23,762 nt of DNA from IMG/VR virus record IMGVR_UViG_2531839524_000007; one strand, given 5' to 3'. The notes under the pieces were generated by a model. It was given only the letters and a program-made list of their open reading frames with translations. It made no database searches and was not told the origin of the DNA. Below are positions 1 through 11,847 of this stretch, piece by piece. Position 1 is the stretch's first letter, and each line of letters opens with the position of its first letter. The DNA comes from a virus (Duplodnaviria > Heunggongvirae > Uroviricota > Caudoviricetes). A program made the position numbers and the translations under genes.

Positions 1-1284
1 TTACTTCTTCGCCTCTGCAACCACTTTGCTACCCACGCCGCGGTTATTGTATTCCCACATGCGGTTGTAGTTAGTGTCATTCAGATTGCGCTGTATTTCG
101 TCGCTATCGTCAACGCTGCCGGTATTACCCGCAAACGGACGATTAGAGATCACCGCATCGCCCCACGGTTTAACCGTGTTAAAACCTTCGTTGATGGCGC
201 TATCACGGATCACCACCTGACCGTTGGTATTGGCATCAACATCCAGCGAGCGGCCCAGTTGCGCCACGCCATCACCGGAAGCATTGAAACGGCTGTTTAC
301 GGCGAGGAAACCGTAATAGATGTTGGACAGCGTAGCCGGTGCAAACACATACGCTTCTTGCTGAGTACGTGAGTTCACCACGCGGAATTCGGTGTTATCG
401 AACACCACTGCGCCGCGACCAGAAACGATATCCACATCCCCTTCAATGTAGCTGTTGGTCACCAGCGTACGCGGCTGACGATTCGTTTCCAGACGGTTCT
501 GCACACCGCTGTTGGTGACAAAGAAGGTGTTCTGACGACCGAGAATGTTAACGTTGTTAATCTGTACCTGGTCACCGTCAGTACGCAGTGCCACCGCCGG
601 ATGGTTACCTGCATCTACGCTATCGCCCAGCGTGTTTTCGATGGTCAGATTTTGCAGTTGCAGGCCATTGTTTTGTGACCAGAAGACCGCAGAACACAGA
701 ACACCGATACTGTCGCTGCGTTTGCGCTGGCAGCTATCGTACATATACCACGCTGGTTTACCTGGCATATATTTGCCGCGCGGGTTGACGTCGTGACGCC
801 AGTCGGCAGGGCTCATGCCCCCATCAAGGGAAAGCCCAATCTTCACATCAATCGGTTTTTCACCTGTACCGTACAGAGTAATTCCACCTGGAGCAGCAGG
901 GACATACACCGTTCCCTGATACTCACCAGGCATCACGGCAATATACTGGCGCTTGTTGGTGCGCTTGATAATTGCCGCATCTACCGCCGCCTGAATCGTG
1001 GTATGCGTTACACCTTGAGTACCCGCCGGGCCGACAACAAAGTCAGGTTGCGCAGGCAGGGTTATCGGGGACGGATTCCACGCTGCAGCACCTGGTGTCA
1101 GGGATGCATAATAGTGTTGAGCATCGAAATTCTGCGCTTCTTTTGCCGACAGAATCGGGCGAGAAGAGGTACCAGGCGCAGTTTGATCAGAAGGACGTTG
1201 ATCGGGTGGTGTTGAGCTACAGGCGGTCAGCGTCACGCCAAAAGCCAATGCCAGCGCCAGACGGGAAACTGAAAATGTGTTCAC
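1..1284 (-). CDS. ybhC: YbhC-type outer-membrane lipoprotein (pectinesterase-fold); host gene flanking attB-lambda
   Basis: 427-aa ORF; N-terminal lipoprotein signal with lipobox LTAC; recognised from memory as E. coli YbhC, which lies beside the lambda attachment site; its stop codon is the first triplet of the window. Confidence 0.9.
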   Translation of the reverse strand: MNTFSVSRLALALAFGVTLTACSSTPPDQRPSDQTAPGTSSRPILSAKEAQNFDAQHYYASLTPGAAAWNPSPITLPAQPDFVVGPAGTQGVTHTTIQAAVDAAIIKRTNKRQYIAVMPGEYQGTVYVPAAPGGITLYGTGEKPIDVKIGLSLDGGMSPADWRHDVNPRGKYMPGKPAWYMYDSCQRKRSDSIGVLCSAVFWSQNNGLQLQNLTIENTLGDSVDAGNHPAVALRTDGDQVQINNVNILGRQNTFFVTNSGVQNRLETNRQPRTLVTNSYIEGDVDIVSGRGAVVFDNTEFRVVNSRTQQEAYVFAPATLSNIYYGFLAVNSRFNASGDGVAQLGRSLDVDANTNGQVVIRDSAINEGFNTVKPWGDAVISNRPFAGNTGSVDDSDEIQRNLNDTNYNRMWEYNNRGVGSKVVAEAKK

Positions 1285-3206: not shown

Positions 3207-3737
3207 ATGAAAAAAGATTCGTATCCTTATTTGATTTGCATGACAGTTTCAGGGCTGATCTTTATTTTCCTTTTCTTCTGGTGGCGGGCAGATATCTACA
3301 GGGTCACGTTTCTTAATCAGAGTATATCCCACTATTACATTCTGTTTAGCATGGGAATAGCTTTTCTGTTATCTCTGTTTTGGGTTAAGAAGGGGATAGT
3401 AAAACAAAGAGGCTGGAAGAGTCTGTCAGCATACCTTAAGGTTTATGCAGGGATGTGCATATTTGCAGGATTTTTTCTGATTATACCCCTTACGACACTA
3501 ACTTATTTTTTGCCTGGAGAGACATCGTCTTATGTTGCACCGTATCGGTATACTTCCGGTAGTTCAAAAAGTTGTTCTGGAGCTGAGGTGGATGACCCCG
3601 ATCTACATGAGAATATTCGCATTTGCTATCCGTATGGCAATTATGAGTACGATAATATTATCTATGTTGAAAAGAAAATTAATATATTAGGTGCGGTAGT
3701 GACATATGCACAGACCGCGCGTGATGATACTGAATGA
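3207..3737 (+). CDS. Accessory integral membrane protein (about 3 predicted TM helices plus about 70-aa soluble C-terminal domain); function unknown
   Basis: ORF 3135..3737 on the track; likely start at ATG 3207 (MKKDSYPYLI...) or further upstream; hydrophobic segments LICMTVSGLIFIFLFFWW, YYILFSMGIAFLLSLFWV, YAGMCIFAGFFLIIPLTTLTYFL; visibly AT-rich; opposite strand to the surrounding early-left genes. Confidence 0.6.
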   Translation: MKKDSYPYLICMTVSGLIFIFLFFWWRADIYRVTFLNQSISHYYILFSMGIAFLLSLFWVKKGIVKQRGWKSLSAYLKVYAGMCIFAGFFLIIPLTTLTYFLPGETSSYVAPYRYTSGSSKSCSGAEVDDPDLHENIRICYPYGNYEYDNIIYVEKKINILGAVVTYAQTARDDTE

Positions 3738-3771
3738 TATAGTATATAGCGGGCAAGTTTTAGTTAATTTA

Positions 3772-3795
3772 TCGAGGTAATATAATTTACCTCGA
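3772..3795 (+). terminator. Perfect 9-bp-stem hairpin (tcgaggtaa-tataat-ttacctcga) downstream of the membrane-protein gene; possible bidirectional terminator
   Basis: Inverted repeat read directly; followed by a T-rich stretch on the plus strand; sits between convergent genes. Confidence 0.45.
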
Positions 3796-3947
3796 CTCGT
3801 TTGTTCTGGTATTAATATTTCGCTTTACGACCGATTTTTATCTGATGATATCATGCGGTTTTCATATACTGACTTACTGTCTTTTCTCCGTTAGCGATTT
3901 TCTCCTGCTCAGCGATGATTTTATCTTTGGCTTCTAGTTAATTTCGC

Positions 3948-4906: not shown

Positions 4907-5583
4907 CGCCATTGCTCCCCAAATACAAAACCAATTTCAGCCAGTGCCTCGTCCATTTTTTCGATGAACTCCGGCACCATCTCGTCAAAACTCGCCATGT
5001 AATTTTCATCCCGCTCAACCACGACATAATGCAGGCCTTCACGCTTCATTCGTGGGTCATAGTTGGCAAAGTACCAGGCATCTTTTCGCGTCACCCACAT
5101 GCTGTACTGCACCTGGGCCATGTAAGCTGACTTTATGGCCTCGAAACCACCGAGCCGGAATTTCATGAAATCCCGGGAGGTAAACGGGCATTTCAGTTCA
5201 AGGCCGTTGCCGTCACTGCATAAACCATCGGGAGAGCAGGCGGTGCGCATACTTTCGTCGCGATAGATGATCGGGGATTCAGTAACATTCACGCCGGAAG
5301 TAAACTCAAACAGGGCTCTGGCGTCGTTCTCGTACTGTTTTCCCCAGGCCAGCGCCTTAGCATTAACTTCCGGAGCCACACCGGTGCAAACCTCAGCCAG
5401 CAGGGTGTGGAAGTAGGACATTTTCATGTCAGGCCACTTCTTTCCTGAGCGGGGCTTTGCTATCACGTTGTGAACTTCTGAAGCGGTGATGACGCCGAGC
5501 CGTAATTTGTGCCATGCATCATCCCCCTGTTCGACAGCTCTCACGTCGATCCCGGTACGCTGCAGGATAATGTCCGGTGTCAT
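4903..5583 (-). CDS. exo: Lambda exonuclease (Red-alpha)
   Basis: 226-aa [40 protein letters not shown]... recognised as lambda Exo; same length. Confidence 0.95.
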
Positions 5584-6370: not shown

Positions 6371-6667
6371 TTATACCTCTGAATCAATATCAACCTGGTG
6401 GCGGGCAATAGTTTCAACCATGTACCGTATGTGTTCTGCCATGCGTTCCTGAAACTCAACATCGTCATCAAACGCACGGGTAATGGCTTTTTTGCTGGCC
6501 CCGTGGCGTTGCAAATGATCGATGCATAGCGATTCAAACAGGTGCTGGGGCAGGCCTTTTTCCATGTCGTCTGCCAGTTCTGCCTCTTTCTCTTCACGGG
6601 CGATCTGCTGGTAGTGACGCGCCCAGCTCTGAGCCTCAAGACGATCCTGAATGTAATAAGCGTTCAT
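6371..6667 (-). CDS. gam: Gam (RecBCD inhibitor), short form
   Basis: 98-aa [63 protein letters not shown]... recognised as lambda GamS; the upstream in-frame extension is closed by a stop codon. Confidence 0.9.
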
Positions 6668-6743
6668 GGCTGAACTCCTGAAAATGGCTGTGAAAATATC
6701 GCCCGCGAAATGCCAGGCTGATTAGGAAAACAGGAAAGGGGGG

Positions 6744-6950
6744 TTAGTGATTCAGGCCGTTACCGCGTCCGTCGAGAAAAACTTCCACGAGCAAATCACG
6801 GGTATAAGTGCGCTCGATGCCGCGATGCAGATAAAGCCGTCCGCGTAAATTAGCTGATGCAGTCCAGGTACCATCTTTGTGTTTGACCAGCATTCCTGGC
6901 ATGACCGCACCTCGATTAACGGTCTGCGTTCCGTAATGTTGATGAACCAT
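6744..6950 (-). CDS. Kil-position small protein (possible host cell-division inhibitor); start uncertain
   Basis: ORF 6744..7034 on the track; internal ATG at 6950 is preceded by AGGAG (MVHQHYGTQTVNRGAV...), another at 6902 by GAGGTG; ORF ends where lambda kil ends relative to gam; product assigned by position only. Confidence 0.4.
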   Translation of the reverse strand: MVHQHYGTQTVNRGAVMPGMLVKHKDGTWTASANLRGRLYLHRGIERTYTRDLLVEVFLDGRGNGLNH

Positions 6951-7224
6951 AAAAACTCCTGCCCGTAAGCTGGGCTGCTGAACATATAAAGACTTCTGCG
7001 CGTATTCAGGCGGTGGATGGCCGCCGGTTGTCATAACTAAGCCGCCTCGTTGAAGCGACTAAGGTATGAAATGTTGAGTTAATTTCAGCTGGTCACACCG
7101 ACGTTCACGCGTCCGTTTCACCCCTCGCACTCCCCGAAGCCTGCTGAAATTCAAACTGCGGATCTAAGCGGTCATCGCAACGGTGAATCAGGTAGTTGCC
7201 GTATCGTTGTGTTGTTGCGATGAA

Positions 7225-7290
7225 CTTATTTAAAACTATAGTTGTTTTATCGTCAACAACAAAAGTTGTTTTATTGGTTGTTTTAGATAT
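7225..7290 (-). promoter_or_regulatory. Candidate pL/OL: -35 TTGACG (complement of 7251-7256), -10 TTAAAT (complement of 7228-7233), flanked by AACAAC/GTTGTT operator-like dyads
   Basis: Minus-strand TTGACG, 17-nt spacer, TTAAAT; palindromes AACTATAGTT and AACAAC-aaaa-GTTGTT; the same half-site recurs in the cI-cro intergenic region. Confidence 0.5.
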
Positions 7291-7397
7291 AACTGGTTGT
7301 ATTTAGGATGGATTTATTTTGTGACTTGAATCGCATAGCGATAACTGAAGCGAGGTTATGGTGGTTTTTTTAACGGTGTGTGTGATGAGGGGAGGGC

Positions 7398-7424
7398 AAA
7401 AGAAAACCCGGCACGGTGACCGGG
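7398..7424 (-). terminator. Candidate intrinsic terminator downstream of the repressor gene (tImm-like)
   Basis: Minus-strand hairpin cccgg-tcaccgtg-ccggg followed by TTTTCTTTT. Confidence 0.55.
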
Positions 7425-7545
7425 ATTCTTACGCCGTTAGGTAAAGATATTATTGCGGTGGCTTAATATTACTACCTAGAGCAAAGATAGGAATTAGTTC
7501 TTTACTGAATGAGCACAATGCCCAGTTGATAATTTTTAATTGGTA

Positions 7546-8235
7546 CTACCCATGCTTCCTATATGTCTGCGGCATGCTCCCAATAACCTTACCGAAGATG
7601 AACACCCGGTTCATCTCGTCTTTCTCGATCGGGTCCCACGGTGAGTAGCTTTTGTTATCAGAGATGACCAGCAGCTTATTCTTCATCATTTGCAGGCGCT
7701 TTACATGGGCTGTGTCGTCGTACAGAAACGCATAGATACCATCACCGTCGAAAGATTTAACTGTGATATCAACGAACAGCAGATCACCTGGTTCGATCGT
7801 TCCTGACATGCTGTCACCACGCACGTTAATGATGCGGATATTTTCCGCCTTCCTACCATCGAACATGTGACGAGCATCGTCAAACGAGTACTCAACCGAG
7901 CGTAGAACTTCTACAAACTCACGGTTGATGACTCCCGGCCCAGCACTGACTTCTATATCAAGAACGTCAATCTTGAAGTATTTGGAATGGCTGACAGTTG
8001 ATTGTATTGGTTGCACTGTACTGTCTGACATATTTCCAACGCCAGAAGATAACCATTCTGCGCGCACACCCAAAGCGTTCGCGATCTCCACGATTTTAGT
8101 TGTTTGATTAGCTTTCCCTGTTTCGATTTTCTGAATAGCAGCCTGGCTAACCCCGACCAAATCCCCAAGCGCCTTTTGTGTAAGGCCTCGCGCTAATCTG
8201 GCTTCTTTAAGTCTTTCTGAGAGTGTTGTTTTCAT
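7546..8235 (-). CDS. CI-like prophage repressor (N-terminal HTH, C-terminal S24/LexA-type autopeptidase)
   Basis: ORF 7546..8301 on the track; probable start MKTTLSERLKEARL at 8235; HTH LTQKALGDLVGVSQAAIQKIETG; Ala-Gly cleavage site EVSAGPG; catalytic Ser in VRGDSMSG and Lys in HVKRLQ; not the lambda cI sequence. Confidence 0.9.
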   Translation of the reverse strand: MKTTLSERLKEARLARGLTQKALGDLVGVSQAAIQKIETGKANQTTKIVEIANALGVRAEWLSSGVGNMSDSTVQPIQSTVSHSKYFKIDVLDIEVSAGPGVINREFVEVLRSVEYSFDDARHMFDGRKAENIRIINVRGDSMSGTIEPGDLLFVDITVKSFDGDGIYAFLYDDTAHVKRLQMMKNKLLVISDNKSYSPWDPIEKDEMNRVFIFGKVIGSMPQTYRKHG

Positions 8236-8339
8236 AGTCCAAATGTACAACCAAGGTTTTATTCCATCAAACGAAAATGGTTGTTGACTAAAAACAACCA
8301 TAGTTTTAATCTTGATTCAAATTAACCACGGAGGTTGTT
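8236..8339. promoter_or_regulatory. Divergent OR/pRM/pR region
   Basis: Intergenic region between divergent repressor and cro-like genes; palindrome ATGGTTGTT-N7-AACAACCAT (8277-8301) overlapping candidate pR -35 TTGACT (8284-8289) with a downstream TAATCT-type -10. Confidence 0.6.
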
Positions 8340-8570
8340 ATGAACCCAGCTATCAAAACAGCGATCAATATCGTTGGTTCACAAAAGAAACTGGGCGCTG
8401 CTTGCGAAGTTTCACAGCAGGCCGTCTATAAGTGGCTTCACAACAAAGCAAAGGTATCCCCTGAACATGTCGGCAGCATTGTTACGGCTACTGGTGGAGT
8501 AGTGAAGGCATACCAGATTCGCCCGGATCTTCCGAAGTTGTTTCCACACACCGAAAAGAACGCAGCTTAA
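8340..8570 (+). CDS. Cro-like HTH regulator
   Basis: 76-aa ORF with HTH QKKLGAACEVSQQAVYKWL; GGAGG Shine-Dalgarno; divergent from the repressor. Confidence 0.8.
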   Translation: MNPAIKTAINIVGSQKKLGAACEVSQQAVYKWLHNKAKVSPEHVGSIVTATGGVVKAYQIRPDLPKLFPHTEKNAA

Positions 8571-8582
8571 ATTTCCATTTCA

Positions 8583-8591
8583 CGCTCTTTA
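8583..8591 (+). promoter_or_regulatory. boxA-like motif CGCTCTTTA downstream of cro (nutR position)
   Basis: Matches the boxA consensus of lambdoid nut sites; no obvious GC-rich boxB hairpin follows. Confidence 0.35.
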
Positions 8592-8639
8592 ACAATAAGC
8601 AATCAACTTAACAGTCAATTCAAACTAAAGGAGTCAATT

Positions 8640-9179
8640 ATGCAACCACTTACATACCAACAGACTAGCGGATTTAGCCCGACTGCGGTGATAAATCGTT
8701 CTCAAACAAAACAGGTGCCAGGCCACGAAAAAATCCGTGATGCCGTCCGCGCCTGGTCGGCTGTAGATAATCAGGATGTCGTTGCCACACTCATTGTGAA
8801 TGAGTATCGGGAGCAGGGCGGCGGCACCATCGATTTCCCTGATGATGTCAGCCGTGCACGCCAGAAGCTGTTCCGCTTCCTCGATAACAAATTCGATTCT
8901 GAAAAATACCGAAATAATGTGCGTGAACTGACCCCGGCAATTCTGGCGGTACTACCGCTGGAATATCGCGGTTACCTGGTTGAGCAGGATAGCTTCATGG
9001 CTAGGTTGGCTGAAATGGAAAAGGAACTCAGTGAGGCAAAACAGGCTGTCATTCTCAACGCACCACGCCACCAGAAACTGAAGGAAATTAGTGAAGGTAT
9101 TGTGTCGATGTTTCGTGTGGACCCAGATCTGGCTGGTCCATTGATGGCGATGGTTACTACCATGCTGGGGGCGATATGA
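8640..9179 (+). CDS. cII-position regulatory protein, possibly YdaT-family
   Basis: 179-aa ORF with AAGGAG Shine-Dalgarno directly after cro; larger than lambda CII; family assignment is a recollection, not verified. Confidence 0.5.
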   Translation: MQPLTYQQTSGFSPTAVINRSQTKQVPGHEKIRDAVRAWSAVDNQDVVATLIVNEYREQGGGTIDFPDDVSRARQKLFRFLDNKFDSEKYRNNVRELTPAILAVLPLEYRGYLVEQDSFMARLAEMEKELSEAKQAVILNAPRHQKLKEISEGIVSMFRVDPDLAGPLMAMVTTMLGAI

Positions 9180-9265
9180 CAGGTTCAGAAATGGCGAAAG
9201 CCGGTCTGCTGGAACAGAACCGACTTTCAGGTGCAAATCGTAACACACTCATTGCGGGAGGAATT

Positions 9266-10195
9266 ATGGCAAACACTGCTGAGATATTCAATTTTCCAGT
9301 GCCGGATGCGGCACAAAAGGAGCCGCGCGTGGCAGATCTCGATGATGGTTATACGCGCATTGCAAATGAGTTGCTGGAAGCTGTGATGCTGGCCGGATTA
9401 ACACAGCACCAGCTTCTGGTCTTCCTGGCTGTCATGCGCAAAACATATGGCTTTAATAAAAAACTGGATTGGGTGAGCAACGAGCAACTTTCCGAGTTGA
9501 CCGGGATATTGCCGCACAAGTGTTCTGCTGCAAAAAGTGTTCTGGTAAAGCGTGGGATTTTTATTCAGAGTGGGCGGAATATCGGCATTAATAATGTGGT
9601 CAGTGAATGGTCAACATTACCCGAATCAGGTAAGAAAAATAAAGTTTACCTGAAAGAGGTAAATTTACCTGAATCAGGTAAGAAAAGTTTACCCAAATCA
9701 GGTAAAGGCGTTTACCCGAATCAGGTAAACACAAAAGACAAACTAACAAAAGACAATATAAAACCTTTTTCGTCCGAGAATTCTGGCGAATCCTCTGACC
9801 AGCCAGAAAACGACTTTCCTTTGGAGAAACTGGATGCTGCAATTCAGAGCGGCAGCAAGTGGGGGACAGCAGAAGACCTGACCGCCGCAGAGTGGATGTT
9901 TAACATGGTGAAGACCATCGCGCCCTCAGCCAGAAAACCGAATTTTGCAGGGTGGGCTAACGATATCCGCCTGATGCGTGAACGTGACGGACGTAACCAC
10001 CGCGACATGTGCGTGCTGTTCCGCTGGGCATGCCAGGACAACTTCTGGTCCGGTAACGTGCTGAGTCCGGCCAAACTCCGCGACAAGTGGACCCAACTCG
10101 AAATCAACCGTAACAAGCAACAGGCTGGCGTGACAACCGGAAAATCAAAACTCGACCTGACAAACACTGACTGGATTTACGGGGTGGATTTATGA
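9266..10195 (+). CDS. O: Replication initiator O
   Basis: ORF 9176..10195 on the track; start at ATG 9266 (MANTAEIFNF...) after GGAGG; N-terminal VADLDDGY and the C-terminal half (AAEWMF..MVKTIAPSARKPNFAGWANDIRLMRERDGRNHRDMCVLFRWACQDNFWSGNVLSPAKLRDKWTQLEINRNKQQAGVT...DLTNTDWIYGVDL) match lambda O as recalled; iterons lie inside the gene. Confidence 0.93.
   Translation: MANTAEIFNFPVPDAAQKEPRVADLDDGYTRIANELLEAVMLAGLTQHQLLVFLAVMRKTYGFNKKLDWVSNEQLSELTGILPHKCSAAKSVLVKRGIFIQSGRNIGINNVVSEWSTLPESGKKNKVYLKEVNLPESGKKSLPKSGKGVYPNQVNTKDKLTKDNIKPFSSENSGESSDQPENDFPLEKLDAAIQSGSKWGTAEDLTAAEWMFNMVKTIAPSARKPNFAGWANDIRLMRERDGRNHRDMCVLFRWACQDNFWSGNVLSPAKLRDKWTQLEINRNKQQAGVTTGKSKLDLTNTDWIYGVDL
9617..9775 (+). 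repeat. ori-lambda-type replication origin: five about 19-bp iterons followed by an AT-rich tract
   Basis: Tandem repeats ttacccgaatcaggtaag / tttacctgaaagaggtaaa / tttacctgaatcaggtaag / tttacccaaatcaggtaaa / tttacccgaatcaggtaaac, then acaaaagacaaactaacaaaagacaatataaaacc; inside the O reading frame as in lambda. Confidence 0.85.
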
Positions 10196-11592: not shown

Positions 11593-11847
11593 AAATAATT
11601 TGTTTTTAAACGACTAAAATATGGAGGCTCGTATATTTATATGGGCCTCGTTTTATGCTTTTTGTTAATGTCTTTAGTTTTTATTCATTCTTTTGTGCTT
11701 TCAAGATTATGGTGTAAGAAAATTGCAATACGATTATTGTTGTATATTCAAGATAATGTGACCTTAATTGTCTTTTTAAATAAAAATTAAACAAAAATCA
11801 TATCTCACCACTAAGGTTTATAAAAGCATACTTTAGCAGGTGTCACC

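Follow-up and report, generated by a model that had tools for sequence, protein, structure and literature searches.

Organization of the locus

The window (the whole 23,762-nt stretch of DNA that was analysed) is a lambdoid prophage at att-lambda, adjoining ybhC. It carries int/xis of lambda type, exo-bet-gam, kil of the P22 type and a repressor of the cI type, as well as a cro of the YdaS family, a cII analogue with a YdaT domain, O, P and ren; a nin/Q (quuD)/lysis region like that of DLP12 and lambda-like heads are also present. The region of interest lies between cI and kil and contains the promoter pL and the leader of the leftward operon (Table 1). Over positions 6700-7600 the window is 99.6% identical to Escherichia phage PhiR34_1, whose record gives MG1655 as laboratory host, and 89-99% identical to phages Turner, IdasGreatGrand and 4A7 (genus Bievrevirus) and to the PhiR5, R26, R47 and R68 phages. 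At an identity of at least 90% the leader was found in 2222 of 5426 complete E. coli genomes (~41%), in none of which is it annotated, and it is also present in deposited phages with laboratory hosts.

Table 1. Features of the early-left region and of the start of the right operon, with positions in the window
Feature	Position	Strand	Basis
kil (P22-type cell-division inhibitor, 68 aa), first gene of the pL operon	6744..6950	-	PHROG 294, E = 1e-38
Kil-proximal leader, very strongly conserved	6951..7034	-	pi 0.006; common to phi80 and HK225
Pre-kil module, with hairpin 7036-7062	7035..7072	-	nhmmer/BLAST matches in HK225, L008 and S9-5; phi80 sequence
Short Arg-rich ORF	7059..7154	-	TTG 7154 (31 aa), or GTG 7121 with GGAG 8 nt upstream; encodes ..VKRTRERRCDQLK..
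Lineage-specific 150-nt 5' leader module: stem A (7172-7223), stem B domain (7081-7151)	7073..7222	-	inverted repeats
pL	7228..7256	-	-35 TTGACG 7256-7251, 17-nt spacer, -10 TTAAAT 7233-7228; ~33-nt core common with pR
oL operator repeats (AACAAC/GTTGTT motifs), overlapping pL	7234..7310		oR/pR alignment; inverted repeat I3
Intrinsic terminator of the cI transcript, counterpart of lambda t-imm	7407..7424	-	CCCGGTCACCGTGCCGGG then TTTTCTTTTG
Remnant of gevA (ASCH-domain gene), 3' end, last ~75 nt	7430..7504	-	match to locus L002 and its annotation
cI-type repressor (HTH and S24 peptidase)	7546..8235	-	Pfam HTH_3, Peptidase_S24; PGAP coordinates in locus L188
Consensus boxA in nutR position, no boxB	8583..8595	+	CGCTCTTTAACAA, 13/13, 13 nt past the cro stop

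On the cI side, window positions 7300-7504 correspond to positions 3600-3806 of the related locus L002, and window positions 7501-7560 to its positions 5183-5242. The cargo slot between cI and pL (7300-7545) has been emptied, the 1376-bp GevA/GevT pair of PhiR47_2 and 4A7 being absent; in other relatives the slot holds a SIR2 or a lipoprotein gene.

Both hexamers of the candidate pL put forward in the earlier note (TTGACG-17-TTAAAT, minus strand) are found where that note had placed them. Alignment of the pL and pR regions yields a common core of ~33 nt, GTTGTTGAC(G/T)A..AAAACAAC(T/C)ATAGTTTTAA, which holds the -35 element, the operator repeat and the -10 element; because such a core common with pR is the expected signature of oL/pL, the sequence assignment of pL, as a near-copy of pR, is well supported. 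A simple promoter consensus scan missed pL, as its rule requires an A at position 2 of the -10 hexamer. Transcription is predicted to start at about A7221, and similarity to heteroimmune phages ends at ~7221-7223. In many heteroimmune phages (phi80, locus L186, ~1138; loci L017-L023) the pL transcripts start with CATCG or CATCA, 6-7 nt past the -10 element, and similarity between phages often begins exactly at this transcript start, which may be a preferred module junction. On the opposite strand a hydrophobic 36-aa ORF with a TTG start (7196-7306, plus strand) runs over oL/pL near a weak promoter-like site (7215-7242); the ORF probably arises incidentally from the GTTGTT operator repeats.

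The leader had been described earlier as ~190 nt with no ORF of 60 aa or more before kil. The absence of such an ORF holds, the ORFs between pL and the 6744-7034 ORF being only 28-36 aa long, but the length does not: the kil start is placed at 6950 by the 68-aa form that PGAP gives in relatives and by an AGGAG 5 nt before the ATG, and the untranslated leader is therefore ~270 nt long. Its kil-proximal part holds a hairpin, GGCGG-CCATCCA-CCGCC (7011-7027), and an ATG at 7034 in frame with kil. No terminator-like site was found by a terminator scan of 7035-7225 or between pL and kil. The kil-proximal 84 nt (6951-7034) have a nucleotide diversity of 0.006, against 0.046 at the third codon positions of kil. 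The breakpoints of three independent prophage deletions (proteins P0001-P0003) all lie just past ATGACAACCGGCGG, at the same hairpin, a motif that also occurs 3' of N-tL1 in phi80.

Absence of N and nutL

The claim of the earlier note that no N gene lies between pL and the first leftward gene stands: in addition to the lack of an ORF of at least 60 aa, no ORF in the region has an N-family match in Pfam or PHROG, and N is annotated neither in the near-identical phage PhiR34_1 nor in PGAP-annotated relatives, where Q is the only antiterminator listed. A search for boxA allowing up to three mismatches found none in 7035-7225, so that the leader has no nutL. The lineage is thus a very common E. 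coli lambda-like prophage without an N antiterminator gene. Loss of antitermination in a cryptic prophage had been offered as one explanation; this is right insofar as the N-nutL-tL1 cassette of phi80-type relatives is absent here, but the decay of one cryptic element is not what is seen, because the same architecture occurs in deposited phages (PhiR34_1) and the leader in 41% of complete E. coli genomes.

A search for a short N-like ORF, suggested in the same note, does find a candidate, the Arg-rich ORF of Table 1, which contains VKRTRERR, but it passed no test of N-likeness. Its basic run is equalled by 303 of 1000 dinucleotide shuffles. Of 62 unique variants, 45 have the frame joined to kil, 14, among them the window and PhiR34_1, have it closed by TAG 7061, and in 3 a 5-nt insertion shifts it. 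No protein family for it was found among 5.8 billion protein clusters, and the cluster matches that cover its Arg-rich part are artefactual fusions arising from prophage deletions. With no family match, a basic run at the level of chance and a frame that is not conserved, the ORF is judged from its sequence to be probably non-coding and not a gene, N-like or otherwise.

The leader compared with those of related phages

In phi80 and in loci of the L157 type the leftward order is pL, CATCGAAAC.., boxA, N, the terminator GCCGCCTAACCAGCGGCTTTTT and then a stretch CATACC..TTATGACAACCGGCGGCCATCC, which corresponds to window positions 7072-7011 and is referred to here as the pre-kil segment (~60 nt). 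In phi80 the boxA of the pL leader, TGCTTTTTAACAA, lies upstream of a 98-aa N gene, and the pre-kil segment follows immediately after N and its intrinsic terminator; the L157-type loci show the same cassette order directly upstream of kil. When a profile of the E. coli leader was run with nhmmer against 188 loci, only its last ~40 nt were matched outside the family (HK225, L008 and S9-5), and neither BLAST nor nhmmer detected a remote homologue of the 5' module outside the E. coli family among these loci. By sequence comparison the leader is a mosaic with a junction at ~7072, in which 150 nt of orphan sequence (7222-7073) stand where relatives have nutL-N-tL1, and the remainder (7072-6951) is of the kind that comes right after N and its terminator in phi80/HK225-type phages. 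Because phi80-type relatives have this cassette before the same pre-kil segment, the lineage can be said to be without the whole of N-nutL-tL1. In other respects the early-left region of the phi80/HK225 type resembles that of the window, with a transcript start at CATCG.., the pre-kil segment, the same kil family and YdaS/YdaT-type cro/cII; the difference is that the former has boxA, the 98-aa N gene and the intrinsic terminator whereas the window has the orphan sequence there.

The arrangement of an N-less pL, an untranslated leader and kil as first gene recurs at Kil-anchored loci in Citrobacter, Kluyvera, Enterobacter and Silvania, where the leaders are unrelated and 80-230 nt long. Immunity regions of CP-933P/Sp12 and of the Rac type (repressor, YdaS, YdaT and PL933P) have been described (PMC8630535). 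Like the window, the CP-933P type has an OL/PL that copies OR/PR and a cargo placed between the repressor and pL, a division inhibitor follows downstream, and no N has been described; unlike the window, it has another repressor and other operators, and its leader was left unanalysed in that work (PMC8630535).

Folding and variation of the leader

The two long-range stems that the earlier note had read from the leader are both confirmed as inverted repeats, stem A pairing 7172-7181 with 7214-7223 (10 nt, 100%) and stem B pairing 7081-7092 with 7140-7151 (12 nt, 92%). Folded alone, in windows picked after the repeats had been seen, stem A has a z-score of -3.0 (52 nt), the stem B domain -2.5 and the hairpin at 7036-7062 -3.35, and stem A is present in every predicted fold. 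In context the folding energy of the leader is unremarkable (z = -0.06 for 143 nt and -0.5 for 188 nt), and stem B is missing from the minimum-free-energy fold, in which it is outcompeted by another fold. These predictions suggest that the leader is unusually structured only locally.

Among 41 distinct E. coli variants, a set so little varied (93% mean column identity) that the comparison carries little weight, none of 37 base pairs has changed on both sides, and the score for covariation is the same as the mean of the shuffles. Changes within helices are mostly wobble-compatible, with 9 extra pair types and 96% of cells paired. In the O157-type lineage stem A has a different 5' arm, an immunity breakpoint falling at ~7188 in its loop, and only 5 complementary bases remain.

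The nucleotide diversity of the leader (7222-7035) is 0.043, that of the 5' module (7073-7222) ranges over 0.03-0.07, and that of its stem B part over 0.03-0.04. For comparison, the diversity is 0.046-0.082 at third codon positions of kil, gam, bet and exo and 0.012-0.03 at codon positions 1 and 2 of gam, bet and exo. Since the leader falls between codon positions 1/2 and 3 of its neighbours, the constraint on it is modest at most.

Comparison with put

The put RNAs bind the beta' zinc-binding domain of RNA polymerase and suppress downstream terminators. The leader lies where a put would be expected, starting at the predicted pL start (~7221) just downstream of an early promoter; in HK022 and HK639, lambdoid phages that also lack a lambda-type N, put likewise comes immediately after pL, and put and leader each have two stem-loop regions. 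The put phages also draw on the same mosaic gene pool, HK639, CobraSix and S9-5 carrying the same kil family. On the other hand, the put cores GAACGG..GUCGG and GGCGGG..CGGCAAU are missing from the leader, and put is a compact fold of 70 nt whereas the leader stems are long-range, enclosing 32 and 47 nt. In addition put has a right-operon copy, putR, and none exists for the leader here: a second copy was looked for throughout the window, including the pR operon, and only chance matches of up to 15 nt were found.

Membership was assessed with a covariance model (R1) built from an alignment of 11 authentic puts, namely putL and putR of HK022 (numbering of PMC9378689) and further puts from PDP110P2, UPF_BP1, phiEt88, CobraSix, S9-5, HK639 and PdC23, and searched with filters off. 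R1 gave 63-99 bits on the training puts and 80.8 bits on a positive control, an unseen put in E. coli 23AR0998 (locus L008). In the window it had no match in 7035-7225 or after cro, the best score being 11.2 bits (E = 0.25) within gene O. An Rfam scan of 6500-9300 at E up to 10 returned chance matches only. The null result with a working positive control rules out an HK022-type put, and the leader is not one. The covariance comparison with HK022 putL/putR that the earlier note had proposed as a check thus gave no match, and its suggestion of a put-like RNA antitermination element fails as far as membership of the put family is concerned. Nor does any finding speak positively for a put-like function: there is no paralogue in the pR operon and no covariation, stem A is broken in the O157-type lineage, and homologues of the 150-nt module are confined to the E. 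coli family.

The put detected in strain 23AR0998 (L008 4218-4295, minus strand) is of the HK639 type and unannotated, and lies between the repressor region and the TerB/DUF3927 cargo. In the 5-kb stretch of HK639 (locus L014) R1 finds only one put and only a putL-like site is annotated, which tempers the weight of a missing second copy.

Right-operon boxA and terminator-like sites

The boxA-like sequence after cro that had been pointed out before is a perfect consensus match and the sole one with 0-1 mismatches in the 23.7-kb window; it is also present in loci L001, L002 and L007. No hairpin follows it in the window. In 2 of 29 related loci (e.g. L056, ~330-370, minus strand) 12 extra bases after boxA, ACTGAT(G/T)AACAG (ACTGATGAACAG), create a hairpin GACTG-AT(G/T)AA-CAGTC. 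Judged by sequence, the right boxA may represent a nutR that is minimal or decaying, or else a Nus-factor site of the rrn type. A 13/13 boxA on the pR transcript just past cro is like the rrn type; unlike that type, it is found in the right operon only, with none in the leader, and no boxB or boxC was identified. By analogy, it could aid read-through via host Nus factors.

Hairpin-plus-T-run sites, which are consensus matches only, occur on the minus strand at 4842-4820, 4247-4229 and 2735-2716, the latter two preceding traR-like/xis/int and the last lying just before xis, and on the plus strand at 11624-11649, after emrE and before Q. Because terminator-like sites are thus found further down both operons, some read-through device could still be needed for the distal genes. 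The site at 2735-2716 also reads as a terminator on the opposite strand.

Interpretation of the leader

The reading that we favour, with somewhat better than even confidence, is that this is an ordinary 5' leader of mosaic make-up, belonging to an early-left operon that has no N and from which the N-nutL-tL1 cassette is absent. The region would then be where the immunity module of an N-less lambdoid prophage at att-lambda ends on the left, with the leftward order of cI end, cI terminator, emptied cargo ('rex') slot, oL/pL, the ~270-nt leader and kil-gam-bet-exo. Upon inactivation of cI, RNA polymerase would start at ~7221 and meet no terminator before kil, and the recombination genes would be immediate-early genes independent of N. 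Stem A may serve as a 5'-end stabiliser, and the other hairpins may act in processing or in the control of kil translation; we infer that the hairpins probably act locally and probably do not have a processive antiterminator role, and that no antitermination would be needed as far as exo. Less easily accommodated by an ordinary leader are the terminator-like sites further down both operons, the conservation that extends among heteroimmune phages as far as the transcription start, and the mostly wobble-compatible nature of the changes in helices.

That the 5' module is filler without a function, left as a scar where the immunity and recombination modules recombined and kept by linkage, is unlikely. 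Such a scar would be consistent with the lack of a homologue elsewhere, the mosaic breakpoints at ~7222, ~7188 and ~7072 and the lack of covariation, but the diversity of the stem B part is below that of flanking third codon positions, and the module is retained in 41% of complete E. coli genomes.

Toxic prophage genes, for example rac kilR, are kept silent by Rho, and the leader might be a Rho-dependent attenuator that silences the toxic Kil under leaky pL transcription in lysogens and is overcome at full induction. The leader is long and apparently untranslated, and its first ~45 nt are C-rich and G-poor (9-10 C versus 5 G per 30 nt), as in a rut-like site. The C-rich stretch, however, falls within the loop of stem A, with a G-rich block after it, and ORFs span most of the leader from 7121 on in all variants, which makes translation coupling possible; the attenuator is accordingly judged quite improbable.

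Very little credence is given to the proposal that the 5' module is a new cis-acting RNA, unrelated to put, that stays with RNA polymerase, makes it resistant to downstream terminators and acts as a protein-independent processive antiterminator for the left operon. It would account for a module that starts at about +1 of pL, as putL does, where N is absent; for terminator-like sites downstream in the pL operon; for conservation across immunity types with a similarity boundary at the start site; for stems A and B that, taken alone, fold better than shuffles; and for helix changes that are mostly wobble-compatible. Against these stand the lack of a put-model match and of a second copy for the pR operon, the absence of compensatory pairs from the 41 distinct variants, a stem A of only 5 bp in the O157-type lineage, a stem B that lies outside the minimum-free-energy fold in context with a whole-leader z of ~0, a diversity no lower than that of average nearby coding sequence, and sister N-less prophages with unrelated leaders down to 80 nt. 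A wider form of the proposal, in which the ~150-nt orphan leader, possibly together with the right boxA, provides read-through of early terminators independently of N and put and so represents a new class of cis-acting antiterminator RNA, appears just as doubtful.

Least probable of all is a leader translated in part, as an Arg-rich RNA-binding peptide or as an N-extended Kil (125-136 aa in most variants), which would be an N-like relic or minimal form acting on local hairpins: the GTG at 7121 with its GGAG, the resemblance of the encoded run to an arginine-rich motif, the joining of the frame to kil in 45 of the 62 variants, a diversity at third positions roughly double that at positions 1 and 2 (worked out by hand from allele counts) and a loose likeness between the post-boxA hairpin GACUG-AUGAA-CAGUC of 2 relatives and the leader hairpin GACG-CGUGAA-CGUC are outweighed by the lack of a Pfam/PHROG N-family match, a basic run that 30% of shuffles reach, a frame stopped or shifted in 17 of the 62 variants (the window and PhiR34_1 among them), the lack of divergent protein homologues (the few covering matches being deletion fusions), an ORF almost never called by gene callers, and the lack of any part resembling the NusA- or polymerase-binding regions of N.

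N-less lambdoid phages have been noted before, with speculation by specialists that put-like RNAs may serve them (PMC12315714); no description of the leader was found in the literature searched, which was limited in extent. The present analysis shows that both N and put are missing from a lineage present in ~41% of complete E. coli genomes, and that its leader is an uncharacterised mosaic. If the lineage has no early antitermination, it would represent a natural lambda-like early programme without the N-nutL-tL1 checkpoint before the recombination genes; if some early antitermination exists, its mechanism would be new.

A 91-nt element upstream of kil in other prophages

In Citrobacter/Kluyvera/Klebsiella-type prophages a 91-nt element lies just upstream of kil (L017 2880-2975 and ~50 other loci, L020-L023 and L105-L184). 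A likeness between this element and the stem B domain was plausible by eye, but a covariance model built from the element (R2) found no match in the leader, and the likeness was rejected. The element itself has a 19-bp stem with one bulge and two inner hairpins, with wobble changes and one fully compensatory pair; this predicted fold suggests a structured RNA not described before, which RNase III possibly cleaves.
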